64,000 bases of DNA, taken from the NCBI RefSeq assembly GCF_016026235.1, contig NZ_CP065613.1. One strand, written 5' to 3'. Numbering within the stretch: the first letter of the stretch is position 1; the number at the start of each line of letters is the position of its first letter. Of the stretch, positions 59,082 to 64,000 are shown piece by piece. This DNA comes from Escherichia coli (GTDB lineage: Bacteria; Pseudomonadota; Gammaproteobacteria; Enterobacterales; Enterobacteriaceae). The translations under genes and the position numbers were made by a program. Below the pieces are notes generated by a model. That model did no database searches and was not told the origin of the DNA. It saw only the letters and a list, made by a program, of their open reading frames with translations.

Positions 59082-60743
59082 ATGTTGGCACAACTGACCA
59101 TCAGCAACTTTGCTATCGTTCGTGAGCTTGAGATTGATTTTCATAGCGGCATGACCGTAATAACTGGCGAGACCGGCGCGGGTAAATCTATTGCAATAGA
59201 TGCCCTCGGTCTTTGTCTCGGTGGTCGCGCTGAAGCCGACATGGTGCGTACCGGCGCTGCTCGCGCTGACCTGTGCGCCCGTTTTTCTCTGAAAGATACG
59301 CCAGCGGCTCTGCGCTGGCTGGAAGAAAACCAGCTTGAAGACGGGCATGAATGTTTGCTTCGTCGCGTGATCAGCAGCGATGGTCGCTCCCGTGGTTTCA
59401 TCAACGGTACAGCTGTTCCTCTGTCACAACTGCGCGAACTGGGTCAGTTGCTGATTCAGATCCATGGTCAGCACGCTCATCAGTTACTCACCAAACCCGA
59501 GCACCAAAAGTTCCTGCTTGATGGCTATGCCAATGAAACCTCTCTACTCCAGGAAATGACCGCACGTTATCAGTTGTGGCATCAAAGCTGCCGTGACCTC
59601 GCGCATCATCAACAGTTAAGTCAGGAACGCGCTGCCCGTGCGGAACTGCTGCAATACCAATTAAAAGAACTTAACGAATTTAATCCGCAGCCCGGAGAGT
59701 TTGAGCAAATCGACGAAGAGTACAAACGTCTGGCGAACAGCGGTCAATTGCTGACCACCAGCCAGAATGCATTGGCATTAATGGCCGACGGTGAAGACGC
59801 AAACCTGCAAAGTCAGCTTTACACGGCTAAACAACTGGTGAGCGAATTGATTGGCATGGACAGCAAACTGTCCGGCGTACTTGATATGCTGGAAGAAGCT
59901 ACCATCCAGATTGTTGAAGCCAGCGACGAACTGCGCCACTACTGCGATCGTCTGGATCTCGATCCCAACCGACTGTTTGAACTTGAACAGCGCATCTCAA
60001 AACAGATTTCGCTGGCACGTAAACATCACGTCAGCCCTGAGACATTGCCACAGTATTACCAGTCGCTACTGGAAGAACAGCAGCAACTGGACGATCAGGC
60101 CGACTCACAAGAAACGCTCGCGCTGGCGGTAACGAAACATCATCAGCAGGCACTGGAAACGGCGCGCGCATTACACCAGCAACGCCAGCATTATGCAGAA
60201 GAACTTGCACAGCTGATCACCGACAGTATGCATGCGCTCTCAATGCCGCATGGGCAGTTTACGATTGATGTCAAATTTGACGAGCATCACCTGGGCGCTG
60301 ACGGCGCCGATCGTATTGAGTTTCGGGTAACCACCAACCCAGGTCAGCCAATGCAGCCTATTGCCAAAGTCGCATCCGGTGGTGAATTGTCCCGCATCGC
60401 ATTGGCAATTCAGGTCATCACGGCGCGTAAAATGGAAACCCCGGCACTGATTTTTGATGAAGTGGATGTAGGGATTAGCGGTCCAACAGCGGCAGTTGTC
60501 GGCAAACTGCTGCGTCAACTCGGCGAATCAACTCAGGTGATGTGTGTTACCCACCTGCCACAAGTCGCGGGATGTGGTCATCAACACTATTTTGTCAGCA
60601 AAGAAACCGATGGTGCGATGACAGAAACGCATATGCAATCTCTGGATAAAAAAGCGCGGTTACAAGAGCTGGCGCGCCTGCTTGGTGGCAGTGAAGTCAC
60701 ACGTAACACACTGGCGAATGCGAAAGAACTGCTTGCGGCGTAA
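59082..60743 (+). CDS. recN: DNA repair protein RecN (SMC-like)
   Basis: 553-aa ORF; Walker A GETGAGKS; coiled-coil centre. Confidence 0.97.
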
Positions 60744-60891
60744 ACTTTTTCCCTGCTTCACGGTCAGAGTAAACAGCAAAACGCCGTAAGACTGGAAAGC
60801 AAAAGGTTTTAAAGTGATGAAAGGTCTATTATCATCGGCATATTACAGATGAGCCACGTACTGCTCGGGCCCGAAAAGGAATCAAATCACT

Positions 60892-61233
60892 ATGCGCTGT
60901 AAAACGCTGACTGCTGCAGCAGCAGTACTATTGATGTTGACCGCAGGCTGTTCCACTCTGGAGCGAGTGGTTTACCGTCCTGACATCAACCAGGGGAACT
61001 ATCTGACCGCTAACGACGTATCCAAAATACGTGTTGGCATGACGCAACAACAAGTTGCGTACGCATTGGGTACACCGCTGATGTCCGATCCATTTGGTAC
61101 GAATACCTGGTTCTATGTCTTCCGCCAGCAACCAGGTCATGAAGGTGTAACGCAGCAAACGCTGACGCTAACCTTTAACAGTAGCGGTGTGTTGACCAAT
61201 ATTGATAACAAACCTGCGCTGAGTGGTAACTAA
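60892..61233 (+). CDS. bamE: Outer membrane protein assembly factor BamE
   Basis: 113-aa ORF; lipobox LTAGC. Confidence 0.95.
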
Positions 61234-61258
61234 TAATAAAGTTGCTCTCAAAGACGTT

Positions 61259-61287
61259 AAAAAAGGTGCTCAATGAGCACCTTTTTT
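61259..61287. terminator. Bidirectional terminator between convergent bamE and ratB
   Basis: AAAAAGGTGCTC-AAT-GAGCACCTTTTTT. Confidence 0.8.
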
Positions 61288-61294
61288 CTGTCTG

Positions 61295-61585
61295 TTATTT
61301 ATTCGCTGATTTTTCTGCTCGTTGCCTGCGCAGCTCTTTCGGATCGGCAATGAGAGGGCGATAAATCTCCACCCGATCGCCATCATGCACACTATCGCTT
61401 AGTTTTGCCGGACGGCTGTAAATGCCGACTTTGTTTTTAGTTAAATCGATATCGGTACGCAATTCCAGCAAGCCACTGGCGCGAATAGCTTCTTCAACCG
61501 TCGCGCCCTTCTGCAGCGTCACTCGCTGCAGGTACTGCTTCTCAGGTAGCGCATAAGCCACCTCAACGGCAATTTTACCTGGCAC
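61295..61585 (-). CDS. ratB: RatB (UPF0125, ubiquitin-like fold), encoded downstream of toxin RatA
   Basis: Track ORF 61295..61669; 96-aa product from a GTG start at [20 protein letters not shown]; overlaps the ratA 3-prime end. Confidence 0.8.
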
Positions 61586-62051
61586 TGTAAACCTCTTTCG
61601 CACGAACCGTAAAAGCCTGGACCATATTAGACGCCAGCTCTTTAAACACGCGACCAAAGGCGAGTTCAATCAACTTATTGGTAAACTCAAAGTCGAGATG
61701 AAACTCGATACGACACGCCTCCTGGCTCAGCGGCGTAAACTTCCATCCACCAATCAATTTCTTGAACGGCCCATCCACCAGATTCATAAGAATACTTTGG
61801 TTACTGGTCAACTGGTTGCGGGTAGTAAACGTTTTGCTGATCCCAGCCTTAGAGACATCTACCGCCGCAGTCATCTGCCCAGGAGTGGACTCCAGAATCC
61901 GACTTCCGGTACAACCCGGCAAAAACTGAGGATAAGACTGAACGTCATTCACTAACTGATACATTTGCTCCGCGCTGTAGGGTACCAGTGCGGTCCGGCT
62001 AATCTGAGGCATAACAATTTCCATCAACAAAAATCCAACAAATAATATCAT
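61575..62051 (-). CDS. ratA: Ribosome association toxin RatA (SRPBCC family)
   Basis: 158-aa ORF; an internal start at [10 protein letters not shown] is possible. Confidence 0.88.
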
Positions 62052-62182
62052 TTATCCTGCTGTAAAAAAAACGCTATCCCGGCGCTGGGTAACATCGGGT
62101 TCATGCTAAGATAGAGCCTTGTCCCCCGCAGGATTGATATGGGGTGTTTTCGATTTCAGATTACCGATGATTCACGACGCTT

Positions 62183-62665
62183 ATGACGAAGAAAAAAGCA
62201 CATAAACCTGGTTCAGCGACCATCGCGCTTAACAAGCGCGCCCGTCACGAATACTTTATCGAAGAAGAGTTCGAAGCGGGACTTGCCCTGCAAGGCTGGG
62301 AGGTTAAATCCCTGCGCGCAGGAAAAGCCAATATCAGCGACAGCTACGTCCTTCTGCGTGACGGAGAGGCATTTCTGTTTGGCGCTAACATCACGCCAAT
62401 GGCCGTGGCCTCCACGCATGTGGTGTGCGACCCTACCCGTACCCGCAAGTTACTTCTCAACCAGCGCGAACTGGACTCATTGTACGGTCGCGTCAATCGA
62501 GAAGGCTATACCGTAGTGGCGCTCTCCCTGTACTGGAAAAATGCCTGGTGCAAAGTGAAAATCGGCGTCGCCAAAGGTAAGAAACAGCACGATAAACGTT
62601 CAGATATCAAAGAGCGCGAATGGCAGGTGGATAAAGCGCGTATCATGAAAAACGCCCACCGTTAA
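62183..62665 (+). CDS. smpB: SsrA-binding protein SmpB
   Basis: 160-aa ORF matches SmpB. Confidence 0.97.
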
Positions 62666-62880
62666 ACCTGTACTCCAATTATTGACCAGTTCCTCACCGC
62701 GCCTCCCTCTCCGGCGGCGCGAATGAACATCTTATTGGTTATCACATCCGACACAAATGTTGCCATTCCATTGCTTAATCGAATAAAAATCAGGCTACAT
62801 GGGTGCTAAATCTTTAACGATAACGCCATTGAGGCTGGTCATGGCGCTCATAAATCTGGTATACTTACCTTTACACATTG

Positions 62881-63243
62881 GGGCTGATTCTGGATTCGAC
62901 GGGATTTGCGAAACCCAAGGTGCATGCCGAGGGGCGGTTGGCCTCGTAAAAAGCCGCAAAAAATAGTCGCAAACGACGAAAACTACGCTTTAGCAGCTTA
63001 ATAACCTGCTTAGAGCCCTCTCTCCCTAGCCTCCGCTCTTAGGACGGGGATCAAGAGAGGTCAAACCCAAAAGAGATCGCGTGGAAGCCCTGCCTGGGGT
63101 TGAAGCGTTAAAACTTAATCAGGCTAGTTTGTTAGTGGCGTGTCCGTCCGCAGCTGGCAAGCGAATGTAAAGACTGACTAAGCATGTAGTACCGAGGACG
63201 TAGGAATTTCGGACGCGGGTTCAACTCCCGCCAGCTCCACCAA
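62881..63243 (+). ncRNA. ssrA: Transfer-messenger RNA (tmRNA, 10Sa)
   Basis: 363-nt match GGGGCTGATTCTGGATTCGACGGG...GGTTCAACTCCCGCCAGCTCCACCA; internal tag ORF GCA AAC GAC GAA AAC TAC GCT TTA GCA GCT TAA (ANDENYALAA) at ~62970..63002. Confidence 0.95.
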
Positions 63244-63289
63244 AATTCTCCATCGGTGATTACCAGAGTCATCCGATGAAGTCCTAAGA

Positions 63290-63322
63290 GCCCGCACGGC
63301 GCAAGCCCTGCGGGCTTTTTTG
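63290..63322 (+). terminator. ssrA intrinsic terminator
   Basis: AGCCCGCA-CGGCGCAAGCCC-TGCGGGCT stem followed by TTTTTT. Confidence 0.7.
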
Positions 63323-63446
63323 TATCTGCAATTTGTCCCGCGAAGTCCGAAGAGAACTAATTAAATCCGAACCTTTTAGGCCCATTGATAGGCCCAACGA
63401 AAAGCTCTATTGTTTTCGTTGGGCCTAAACGCATGGAGACTCCCCA

Positions 63447-64000
63447 TGGCAAGAAAAACCAAGCCGTTAACCGATACGGAAATCAAAGCCGCCAAACCTA
63501 AAGATGCCGATTACCAGCTGTATGATGGTGACGGGCTTACTCTGTTAATCAAGTCCAGTGGTAGTAAGCTCTGGCAGTTCCGTTACTATCGACCTCTGAC
63601 AAAGCAGCGAACCAAGCAGAGCTTCGGTGCCTACCCTGCCGTCTCACTTTCTGATGCGCGTAAACTCAGAGCCGAATCTCGAGTTTTATTGGCAAAAGAT
63701 ATTGATCCTCAGGAACATCAGAAAGAACAGGTGAGGAATTCTCAAGAGGCCAAAACCAACACCTTCTTGTTAGTTGCCGAGCGTTGGTGGAATGTGAAGA
63801 AAGCCAGCGTGACAGAGGACTATGCCGACGATATCTGGCGCTCGCTTGAGAGAGATGTTTTTCCAGCAATCGGTGATATCAGTGTCACTGAGATTAAGGC
63901 TCATACTCTGGTTAAAGCAGTTCAGCCGGTTCAGGCTAGAGGTGCATTAGAAACTGTTCGCCGTCTTTGTCAGCGTATTAACGAAGTCATGATTTATGCG
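63447..64000 (+). CDS. intA: P4-family tyrosine integrase, N-terminal ~184 codons; continues beyond window end (prophage/island integrated at ssrA)
   Basis: ATG after a GGAGA RBS; translation MARKTKPLTDTEIKAAKPKDADYQLYDGDGLTLLIKSSGSKLWQFRYY... is typical of P4-like integrase N-terminal (DUF4102/arm-binding) domains; ORF runs off the window so it is absent from the ORF track. Confidence 0.85.

Follow-up and report, generated by a model that had tools for sequence, protein, structure and literature searches.

The gene pair ratA-ratB of Escherichia coli raises the question of whether it encodes a ribosome-targeting toxin together with its antitoxin, as current database names have it, or two housekeeping proteins. 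We addressed this question in a stretch of 64,000 nucleotides from an E. coli genome (assembly GCF_016026235.1, contig NZ_CP065613.1), which is called the window in the following. An initial annotation of this DNA had described RatA as a toxin that blocks 70S association and the status of RatB as an antitoxin as unsettled. The first of these claims was not supported, and the second point has been largely settled against a toxin-antitoxin (TA) system by the literature from 2020 to 2026 together with comparative data. In our judgement ratA-ratB is very probably a housekeeping operon, part of the core genome of E. coli, that encodes a Coq10-type RatA and does not constitute a TA module. Because published work and comparative data agree on this finding, the question is largely settled, the function of the widely conserved RatB (YfjF) aside. 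The interest of the case lies chiefly in the quality of annotation, since the toxin label of RefSeq and NCBIfam was reproduced by a reader who had the sequence only.

Organization and conservation of the ratA-ratB locus

In the window, ratA and ratB form a bicistronic operon on the minus strand between smpB/ssrA and bamE. In its physiological form of 145 amino acids, ratA (pasT or yfjG, with ubiM as a proposed name) occupies positions 61575..62012, from the ATG at 62012-62010 to the TAA at 61577-61575. The ratB gene (yfjF or pasI, 96 amino acids) follows at 61295..61585, from the GTG at 61585-61583 to the TAA at 61297-61295. The pair had initially been placed at 61295-62051; the first of these limits is indeed the end of ratB, whereas the second is the start of an old long form of ratA, the true start being the ATG at 62012. 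The overlap between the genes, put at about 11 nt before, is exactly 11 nt (GTGCCAGGTAA, 61575..61585, minus strand) both by reading of the sequence and in RefSeq. The 3' end of ratA reads ...GTT TAC AGT GCC AGG TAA and ratB begins, in a frame offset by one base, with GTG CCA GGT AAA (V/M-P-G-K). RefSeq gives the same 11-nt overlap, with a ratA form of 438 nt, in a genome whose sequence matches window positions 60700-62700 at 100 % identity (L001; yfjF at 2096-2386, ratA at 2376-2813). Between the convergent bamE and ratB genes, a terminator scan of the plus strand revealed a symmetric hairpin of 13 pairs (AAAAAAGGTGCTCAATGAGCACCTTTTTT, 61259..61287). It is a palindrome with A-run and T-run arms, is identical on the minus strand and probably serves as a bidirectional intrinsic terminator. 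In an Rfam search of positions 60500-64000 the tmRNA was the sole match, and no known RNA element was found in the ratA-ratB operon.

The locus is present in 5425 of 5426 complete E. coli genomes (at least 95 % identity), with a median of one copy and a chromosomal location. The order smpB<>ratA-ratB<bamE is kept across Enterobacterales and Alteromonadales as well as in loci from Aeromonas and Photobacterium, and the arrangement smpB<>ratA-ratB occurs in sampled Betaproteobacteria. Synteny is fixed in 73 of 80 loci from several orders, and smpB is the divergent neighbor in 69 of the 80. Values of dN/dS were about 0.02-0.05 for ratA and ratB in the two closest comparisons (0.04-0.05 for ratB against E. 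albertii and Citrobacter), suggesting that both genes are under purifying selection.

The start codon and the promoter of ratA

The long ratA reading frame begins with an ATG at 62051 ('Met1'), 13 codons ahead of the ATG at 62012 (Met14). Met14 is kept in all 71 related loci, and the NCBIfam model NF007999 matches residues 14-157 of the long frame over its full length (model positions 1-144 of 144). An uninterrupted frame from the upstream ATG to Met14 exists in no more than 15 of 48 Enterobacterales loci (Escherichia and 14 others), stops or a shift of frame intervening in 33. The peptide sequence of the 13-residue extension is not conserved. All 48 Enterobacterales loci carry the extended -10 motif TGnTAnnnT (here TGnTATTAT), which lies 38-40 nt 5' of the Met14 ATG in 45. 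The TG of this putative element (TGaTATTAT, 62042..62050, minus strand; TG at 62050-62049, hexamer TATTAT at 62047-62042) is formed by the final two bases of the 'Met1' ATG. We infer the exact positions of the -10 element and of the transcription start site, the latter at about 62036-62034. A simple sigma-70 scan of the minus strand did not report the ratA promoter because its -35 region is poor, and the position given here rests on a statement in the literature and on conservation.

Published experiments describe a sigma-70 promoter that lies partly within the annotated ratA frame, including its -10 box, and a mapped transcription start downstream of Met1; in the same work, an M1S mutation lowered the ratA promoter score and the mRNA level (PMC11988751). 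The conserved position of TGnTAnnnT fits both the -10 box inside the annotated frame and the effect of M1S. Met14 was found to be the only start used, with cells making the 145-residue form alone (PMC11988751), and this short form remained the only one observed at different growth phases and under stress (PMC11988751; bioRxiv 10.64898/2026.05.04.722385). At the Shine-Dalgarno position 5' of Met14, most of the listed upstream regions from Enterobacterales share a (C)AGGAA(A) motif, and in the window a weak Shine-Dalgarno-like GGAAA can be read at 62018..62022 (minus strand), 5 nt 5' of the Met14 ATG. An extended -10 sigma-70 promoter with its TG inside the old 'Met1' ATG would yield an mRNA that starts 3' of that ATG, and translation from the ATG at 62012 gives RatA as a START-domain protein of 145 residues. 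The mis-annotated N-terminal extension of 13 codons (62013..62051, minus strand) corresponds to the promoter -10 region plus 5' untranslated region, in keeping with the unconserved peptide and the start of transcription downstream of Met1. We conclude that the label of ribosome toxin and antitoxin arose from an error in the annotated start codon and that RatA 'toxicity' traces back to a start codon that is really promoter sequence.

One could still suppose that RatA is a conditional toxin, such that stress drives a second, upstream promoter, the resulting RatA of 158 residues with its hydrophobic tail slows growth, and RatB modulates the effect. The authors of PMC11988751 did not exclude another ratA promoter, for example a stress-specific upstream one giving the long form, and the frame between Met1 and Met14 is open in Escherichia and the 14 other Enterobacterales loci mentioned above. 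In addition, one study, as related in bioRxiv 10.64898/2026.05.04.722385, found that pasI eased long-form toxicity in liquid culture. However, the growth phases and stresses covered in the literature showed the short form only, the extension is closed or out of frame in 33 of the 48 Enterobacterales loci and unconserved as a peptide, and the 'Met1' ATG is explained by the extended -10 element, to which it contributes the TG. We regard a conditional toxin as very improbable.

RatA as a probable Coq10-like ubiquinone carrier

The SRPBCC fold initially ascribed to RatA was confirmed. The protein matches Pfam family PF03364 (E = 1e-38), and its AF2 model adopts the START (helix-grip) fold (pLDDT 96.3, pTM 0.88). 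Foldseek aligned this model with START/ARO-CYC structures at TM-scores of 0.75-0.84. The 50 PDB matches listed consist of cyclases, Bet v 1/PYL-type ligand binders and START-type proteins, all of which bind small ligands, and there was no toxin among them. Caulobacter CC1736 (1T17) matched RatA with an E value of 1.8e-19 and 30 % identity. When RatA was compared directly with yeast COQ10 by BLASTP, the match was marginal (E = 0.01), so that profiles were needed to establish this relationship: hhalign of the RatA family against the yeast COQ10 family (with member P0271 named COQ10 by NCBI) gave a probability of 98.5 % and an E value of 3.7e-15 over 133 columns, spanning the entire domain. In 35 RatA sequences F30, C34 and W90 are invariant and P32 is nearly so. 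In the numbering of the long form, F30 and W90 become F43 and W103, and mutation of F43/W103 resulted in a null RatA phenotype, though with a reduced protein level (bioRxiv 10.64898/2026.05.04.722385). RatA thus combines a START fold containing a hydrophobic pocket with homology to COQ10 and conserved pocket residues.

These results agree with reports that RatA is the bacterial Coq10 homologue and binds ubiquinone-8 (Fino 2020, PMC7424257; Fasnacht 2025, PMC11988751; Fasnacht 2026 preprint, bioRxiv 10.64898/2026.05.04.722385). Loss of ratA leads to respiratory defects, and human COQ10 rescues the mutants (PMC7424257). Ubiquinone-8 co-purifies with RatA, which is found in the cytosol and at the membrane and contacts the soluble Ubi metabolon, including UbiF and UbiG (bioRxiv 10.64898/2026.05.04.722385). 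The hydrophobic pocket of RatA would hold ubiquinone-8, and via its UbiF and UbiG contacts the protein would carry newly made ubiquinone-8 from the soluble Ubi metabolon to the inner membrane and hence support aerobic respiration. This shuttle model is based on the preprint.

The toxin-antitoxin assignment

According to the competing explanation, ratA-ratB is a genuine type II TA system, in which RatA attaches to the 50S subunit and prevents 70S association, with RatB as a co-translated antitoxin. Database names convey this reading: in NCBIfam NF007999 and in RefSeq, RatA continues to be listed as a type II TA toxin, and the JGI product name of relatives of RatB is 'antitoxin RatB'. It also draws on two older studies which, as cited in bioRxiv 10.64898/2026.05.04.722385, observed growth arrest and fewer 70S ribosomes upon over-expression of ratA/pasT, and on the superficial resemblance of the overlapping two-gene layout to TA operons. 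Later work located the toxicity elsewhere. Only the artificial Met1 form of 158 residues is toxic, native RatA of 145 residues being beneficial (PMC11988751), and the long form has never been detected from the native promoter (PMC11988751; bioRxiv 10.64898/2026.05.04.722385). Fino et al. saw no toxicity in strains CFT073 or MG1655 and no need for PasI (PMC7424257). We attribute the toxicity and the deficit in 70S ribosomes described earlier to over-expression of a non-physiological RatA with a hydrophobic extension of 13 residues.

Evidence on RatB points in the same direction. In the original RatA study, as summarized in bioRxiv 10.64898/2026.05.04.722385, RatB did not neutralize RatA on plates and no RatA-RatB complex could be formed. 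The doubt that the initial annotation had cast on RatB as an antitoxin was justified. Deletion of ratB is viable (bioRxiv 10.64898/2026.05.04.722385; PMC11988751). A Pfam domain search of RatB found Ub-RnfH (PF03658) alone and no DNA-binding domain. The gene order is ratA then ratB, so that the putative toxin comes first, unlike the usual antitoxin-first layout. RatA itself has a ligand-binding START fold and is homologous to COQ10. The patchy, multi-copy or mobile distribution of TA systems is not seen either, given one copy at a fixed position in 5425 of 5426 E. coli genomes and synteny across orders; ratB is found without adjacent ratA, and solitary ratA is common (PMC7424257). Hence we consider the type II TA explanation largely refuted and scarcely tenable, and conclude that ratA-ratB is not a TA module.

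Overlap of ratA and ratB and possible translational coupling

The overlap of the two genes had been taken to suggest translational coupling. It is kept in 70 of the 73 loci with an adjacent ratA (8 nt in 40 loci, 11 nt in 20, 4 nt in seven, 20 nt in two and 17 nt in one) and is for this reason not a product of chance. The apparent gaps in loci L048, L063 and L070 are probably artefacts of automatic start-codon choice. A Shine-Dalgarno sequence for ratB, AAAGAGG (61592..61598, minus strand), is embedded in the RatA codons for Lys-Glu-Val, 6 nt 5' of the GTG, and GAGG with this 6-nt spacing precedes the ratB start in 46 loci. In the parsable Enterobacterales loci, the Glu codon of Lys/Arg-Glu-Val is GAG in 38 of 39 cases (GAA once, in L040), a bias that suggests selection on a synonymous site. 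The proposed GTG start of ratB was likewise upheld. GTG is used by 57 of 80 ratB genes, all seven ratB genes without adjacent ratA starting with ATG, and since the Pfam and NCBIfam RnfH models match the 96-residue RatB from residue 4-5, initiation at the GTG gives a full-length member of the family.

Within ratA, the minus-strand scan found no sigma-70-like site. When the 121 nt surrounding the start of ratB were folded as RNA, the minimum free energy was no better than that of shuffled sequences (z = -0.33), and no structure appeared that would occlude the site or enforce coupling. The conserved layout renders coupling plausible. Upon deletion of ratA only, ratB was reported to fall (log2FC of -6.75, data not shown there; bioRxiv 10.64898/2026.05.04.722385), an effect that could be transcriptional or polar. 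As to mechanism, we infer that ratB would be read from the ratA mRNA and that ribosomes ending ratA would expose or re-use the GAGG/GTG site, thereby tying synthesis of the 96-residue RatB to ratA expression.

A RatA-RnfH fusion of 241 amino acids (P0247), which might be read as a 'Rosetta stone', stems from a single Logan contig of 2.8 kb and was given no weight, because one indel in the overlapping frames would create such a fusion. P0001 was discounted on the same grounds.

RatB and its possible partners

RatB matches Pfam PF03658 over model positions 1-83 of 83 (E = 5.4e-35; 120 bits, cut-off 23.7) and NCBIfam NF002490 with an E value of 1.7e-45 (153 bits, cut-off 75). These matches identify it as a ubiquitin-like beta-grasp protein of the RnfH family with a basic C-terminal tail. 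Its closest solved relative is PDB 2hj1 (E = 2.2e-27, residues 4-88), and RnfH of the Azotobacter vinelandii Rnf1 complex (8ahx_H) aligned with an E value of 3.7e-13 over 72 residues. Y11, S37, G54, GDR69-71, E73 and Y75 are invariant and common to RatB and the RnfH proteins of rnf operons. The latter form a separate clade of 84-88 residues with a poly-Asp/Glu tail, and their genes lie after rnfABCDGE and next to nif genes, whereas RatB-type proteins have the conserved basic tail ADPKExRRxRA. RatB is not of the rnf-operon type, ratB being flanked by ratA and bamE in the window, and it belongs to the ratA-linked RnfH subfamily of Iyer et al. 2006. With tags, RatB was not detectable (bioRxiv 10.64898/2026.05.04.722385).

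In seven Pasteurellaceae loci (Haemophilus, Rodentibacter, Aggregatibacter segnis and Cricetibacter), inspected in the adjacent region, ratB occurs without adjacent ratA. The order of the Pasteurellaceae includes species that have lost the ubiquinone pathway (PMC11707229). We tentatively propose that RatB, instead of being an antitoxin or just an accessory to RatA, could be an autonomous, basic-tailed beta-grasp adaptor of the RnfH type for another partner, either an Fe-S subunit of the RnfB/RsxB type, to which a two-hybrid result from Legionella points, or the translation/tmRNA machinery, with its synthesis slaved to ratA via the GTG start. If this is true, ratB without adjacent ratA and the charge-inverted tail would be the first comparative signs of an independent role of RatB. 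Together, the conserved overlap with its embedded Shine-Dalgarno sequence, the Pasteurellaceae ratB genes lacking a neighboring ratA and the basic versus acidic tails narrow the hypotheses on RatB and give no answer.

One such hypothesis, compatible with a housekeeping operon, is that RatB, independently of RatA, serves as an adaptor of the RnfH type and docks on an RnfB/RnfC-like Fe-S subunit, which in E. coli would belong to the Rsx complex. Besides the match to RnfH in the Rnf1 cryo-EM structure, it can be argued that A. vinelandii RnfH is a cofactor-less cytoplasmic subunit touching RnfB and RnfC according to the literature, and that an interaction between RnfH/RatB-like and RnfB-like proteins of Legionella pneumophila has been predicted and validated by two-hybrid analysis. 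The retention of ratB without adjacent ratA in genera that include species reported to lack ubiquinone would also fit. Conversely, partners may differ between the acidic-tailed RnfH clade and the basic-tailed RatB, and the Legionella protein may not be of the RatB type. Such an adaptor function appears rather unlikely to us. The Rsx operon of E. coli has no H gene.

Alternatively, RatB might be an RNA- or ribosome-associated factor tied to trans-translation or termination, whose basic tail binds RNA and whose smpB/ssrA neighborhood is functional. Both Iyer et al. 2006 and a tmRNA survey remarked on the proximity of smpB, which recurs in 69 of 80 loci, and the former study grouped RnfH most closely with RNA-binding TGS domains. 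Readthrough of UGA and UAG fell in a yfjF knockout in a published study, and the conserved basic tail of RatB could serve such a function. Yet the change in readthrough went uncomplemented and may be a polar effect or an indirect one acting via respiration, neighborhood by itself is weak evidence, and the solitary Pasteurellaceae ratB genes do not lie beside smpB. We judge this alternative to be quite unlikely.

Comparison with known systems

Like the type II TA systems MazEF and RelBE, ratA-ratB is a two-gene operon with overlapping frames, and both its historical name and its database label are those of a TA system. It differs from them in that the gene at the toxin position comes first, there is no DNA-binding antitoxin and no toxin fold, native toxicity is absent according to the literature, ratB can be deleted, and the locus is core, single-copy and syntenic. 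With coupled overlapping gene pairs (ATGA or overlaps of 8-11 nt) it shares the stop-start overlap, a Shine-Dalgarno sequence in the upstream coding region, a weak GTG start and conservation, a likeness that lies in the sequence layout.

RatA has the same PF03364 domain, START fold and pocket residues as CC1736 and mitochondrial Coq10 (S. cerevisiae COQ10, human COQ10A/B) and is distinguished from the latter by having neither a mitochondrial presequence nor a membrane anchor. The overlapping rnfH-family gene that follows beta- and gamma-proteobacterial ratA is absent from eukaryotes and most other bacteria. RatB shares PF03658 and the beta-grasp core with A. vinelandii Rnf1 RnfH (8AHX chain H) and with RnfH from rnf operons of Stutzerimonas/Pseudomonas, which carry a poly-Asp/Glu tail and are encoded after rnfABCDGE, in contrast to the basic tail and the position after ratA in the case of RatB. 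The Haemophilus influenzae 2HJ1 protein has a basic tail as in RatB, whereas in the sampled Haemophilus loci the gene of this family is solitary, begins with ATG and has no ratA beside it, unlike E. coli ratB.

Genomic context of ratA and ratB

The 59-64 kb part of the window is E. coli core chromosome and carries recN (59082-60743, plus strand), bamE (60892-61233, plus strand), the 96-aa ORF ratB (61295-61585, minus strand), the START-domain ORF ratA (61575-62012, long form to 62051, minus strand), smpB (62183-62665, plus strand) and the tmRNA gene (62880-63242). A 2-kb query around ratA-ratB was 100 % identical to E. coli FDAARGOS_943 and was recovered at an identity of at least 95 % from 5425 of 5426 complete E. 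coli genomes, with a median of one copy per genome. RefSeq names the genes 'type II toxin-antitoxin system toxin RatA' (ratA, 438 nt) and 'RnfH family protein' (yfjF, 291 nt) and annotates an 11-nt overlap. The neighbourhood ratA-rnfH-smpB-smpA(bamE) was reported by Iyer et al. (2006) and later in a tmRNA survey. Directly after the tmRNA gene, an integrase (intA) region occupies 63243-64000. It is covered at 80 % or more in just 692 of the 5426 E. coli genomes, and in FDAARGOS_943, the best match for the ratAB region, an IS5 transposase is found in its place. This segment is a variable ssrA-linked island junction.

Start codon and promoter of ratA

The right-hand end at 62051 in the initial annotation corresponds to the former 'Met1' of RatA in its 158-aa version; by RefSeq, model alignment and conservation the true start is the ATG at 62012 (Met14). 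RefSeq today gives the 145-aa form, the 144-position RatA model of NCBIfam aligns solely with residues 14-157 of the long form, and the Met14 ATG is present in all 71 loci whose ratA is complete. Upstream of this ATG, 48/48 Enterobacterales loci carry a TGnTAnnnT motif, in most cases TGnTATTAT, at a distance of 38-40 nt in 45. In 43 of the 48, the 'Met1' ATG consists of an A and the TG that belongs to the extended -10 element; only 15 of the 48 have an open reading frame running from it to Met14. The peptide between Met1 and Met14 is not conserved in these loci. In the window, we place the putative element at TG 62050-62049 and TATTAT 62047-62042 (minus strand); a generic sigma-70 promoter scan missed the ratA promoter, which has a weak -35. 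The conserved motif and the Met14 data agree with the mapping of Fasnacht et al. (2025; PMC11988751), who located a sigma-70 promoter with its -10 box within the annotated ratA ORF and the transcription start downstream of Met1, and found that mutation of Met1 lowered mRNA while mutation of Met14 abolished the protein. Directly upstream of the -10 region, at 62070-62086 (minus strand), lies a terminator-like short hairpin with a T-run (AGCGCCGGGATAGCGTTTTTTTT); the T-run is kept in many Enterobacteriaceae and occupies the -35 position.

RatA and the toxin-antitoxin assignment

RatA matched Pfam PF03364 (E 1e-38), and its AF2 model adopts a START helix-grip fold (pLDDT 96.3). Structural comparison placed it among binders of small hydrophobic ligands: the neighbours were polyketide cyclases, TTHA0849, Caulobacter CC1736 (1T17, 30 % identity), Bet v 1/PR-10 proteins and PYL receptors, with no toxin among the matches listed. 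Profile-profile comparison of 35 RatA sequences with the yeast COQ10 family, whose seed was confirmed to be 'ubiquinone-binding protein COQ10', gave 98.5 % probability (E 3.7e-15, 133 columns). The invariant residues F30 and W90 correspond to F43 and W103 in long-form numbering, mutation of which results in a null phenotype (Fasnacht, 2026, bioRxiv 10.64898/2026.05.04.722385). The same preprint reports co-purification of Q8 with RatA, a cytosolic and membrane-associated location and contacts with UbiF and UbiG, and suggests the name UbiM. Mutants have respiratory, membrane-potential and oxidative-stress defects that are rescued by pasT (ratA) alone or by human COQ10, with no role for pasI (ratB) and no pasT toxicity found (Fino et al., 2020; PMC7424257). 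In fold, sequence homology and conserved pocket residues, RatA conforms to the Coq10 family.

The initial annotation headlined a ribosome-targeting toxin, which repeats an outdated annotation: toxicity and polysome loss are limited to the artificial long form of RatA (Fasnacht et al., 2025; PMC11988751). The reading of the pair as a type II module of RatA toxin and RatB antitoxin failed on every testable point. RatA lacks a toxin fold, a DNA-binding antitoxin is absent, and the genes stand in an atypical order for type II systems. The locus is single-copy, syntenic and part of the core genome; published work records no native toxicity, no RatA-RatB complex and a viable ratB deletion. For 61575-62051, the names 'type II toxin RatA' and 'antitoxin RatB' have been overturned by the experimental literature but continue to be spread by NCBIfam NF007999 and by RefSeq product and JGI names. 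The locus as such is already known and was clarified recently.

The ratA/ratB junction

Direct reading of the minus strand (...CGAAAGAGGTTTACAGTGCCAGGTAAAATT...) bore out the overlap of about 11 nt and the GTG start proposed at the outset: ratA ends in AGT GCC AGG TAA (stop 61577-61575), ratB begins with GTG CCA GGT AAA from 61585, and the overlap is exactly 11 nt. A good Shine-Dalgarno sequence, AAAGAGG (61598-61592, minus strand), precedes the GTG with a spacing of 6 nt. The GTG start yields a full-length family member, since the Pfam Ub-RnfH (E 5.4e-35) and NCBIfam NF002490 (E 1.7e-45) alignments of the 96-aa product begin at residue 4-5. We sampled 80 related loci, one genome per species, from Enterobacterales, Pasteurellales, Alteromonadales, Aeromonas, Photobacterium and a few Betaproteobacteria. 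An adjacent ratA was present in 73, and 70 of these overlap with ratB (8 nt in 40, 11 nt in 20, 4 nt in seven, 20 nt in two and 17 nt in one); ratB starts with GTG in 57/80 loci, and 46 have GAGG 6 nt upstream of the start. The overlap with its GTG start is real and not due to chance. The Shine-Dalgarno sequence doubles as RatA codons Lys-Glu-Val, and among the Enterobacterales loci with a parsable codon pattern Glu is encoded by GAG in 38/39 and by GAA once, a bias that points towards selection at this synonymous site. Both genes are under strong purifying selection: dN/dS for the two is 0.035 and 0.040 in the comparison with E. albertii, and 0.017 and 0.048 in that with Citrobacter.

We infer translational coupling of ratB to ratA. 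Most likely, the extended -10 promoter gives a short-leader mRNA, on which ribosomes initiate at ATG 62012 and produce the 145-aa ubiquinone carrier. At the last ratA codons they would cross the GAGG/GTG site and could initiate ratB, either through termination-reinitiation or because the site is unmasked, so that RatB output would track RatA output. Consistent with coupling, the promoter scan detected no sigma-70-like site within ratA on the minus strand, deletion of ratA lowered ratB by a log2FC of -6.75 (Fasnacht, 2026), and an A6-stem-T6 hairpin of perfect symmetry (61259-61287) between the convergent bamE and ratB probably acts as a bidirectional intrinsic terminator for both. The local RNA fold at the ratB start was unremarkable.

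RatB family and possible partners

RatB belongs to the RnfH ubiquitin-like beta-grasp family, which comprises 3559 cluster representatives at E <= 1e-3. S37, G54, R71, E73 and Y75 are invariant and the tail ADPKExRRxRA is nearly so; relatives of known structure are 2HJ1 from H. influenzae (E 2e-27) and, in the A. vinelandii Rnf1 complex, RnfH (8AHX chain H, E 4e-13). Seven collected Pasteurellaceae loci (L053, L055, L059, L060, L067, L069 and L076; Haemophilus, Rodentibacter, Aggregatibacter segnis and Cricetibacter) carry ratB, at about 4001 in most, without an adjacent ratA. All seven genes start with ATG, and their neighbourhoods differ (modC; a small EamA-like membrane protein; a JmjC/cupin-like gene with xseA). 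A faint ratA-like match in A. segnis L060 (3738-3815, E 0.53) is possibly a decayed ratA remnant. Some Pasteurellales species have lost the ubiquinone pathway (PMC11707229), and the lone ratB genes, for which adjacency was judged at the locus only, fit RatA following ubiquinone and RatB having a role of its own.

Three tentative leads to a RatB partner emerge: an RnfB-like protein, as predicted and validated by two-hybrid analysis in Legionella (PMC11445079); the machinery of translation or tmRNA, suggested by the gene neighbourhood and by a yfjF readthrough phenotype reported without complementation (PMC10570021); and RatA itself. Detection of tagged RatB failed (Fasnacht, 2026). A single 2.8-kb metagenome contig (L082, 1595-2320) encodes a 241-aa RatA-RnfH protein between dnaB and a same-strand smpB, which may reflect a genuine gene fusion or an artefact of an indel.

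We found no description of the lone Pasteurellaceae ratB or of an inverted tail charge in the literature cited here. The RnfH proteins of rnf operons (Azotobacter, Stutzerimonas, Pseudomonas) form a separate clade of 84-88 aa with a poly-Asp/Glu tail, and their genes follow rnfABCDGE and adjoin nif genes, as checked at loci L083/L084 (7001-7264). In contrast, the conserved ADPKExRRxRA tail of RatB-type members is basic, opposite in charge to that of rnf-operon RnfH in our family alignment (A4). By sequence, rnf-operon RnfH and RatB-type proteins are two subfamilies with charge-inverted tails, and RatB belongs to the ratA-linked subfamily, not to that of the rnf operons.
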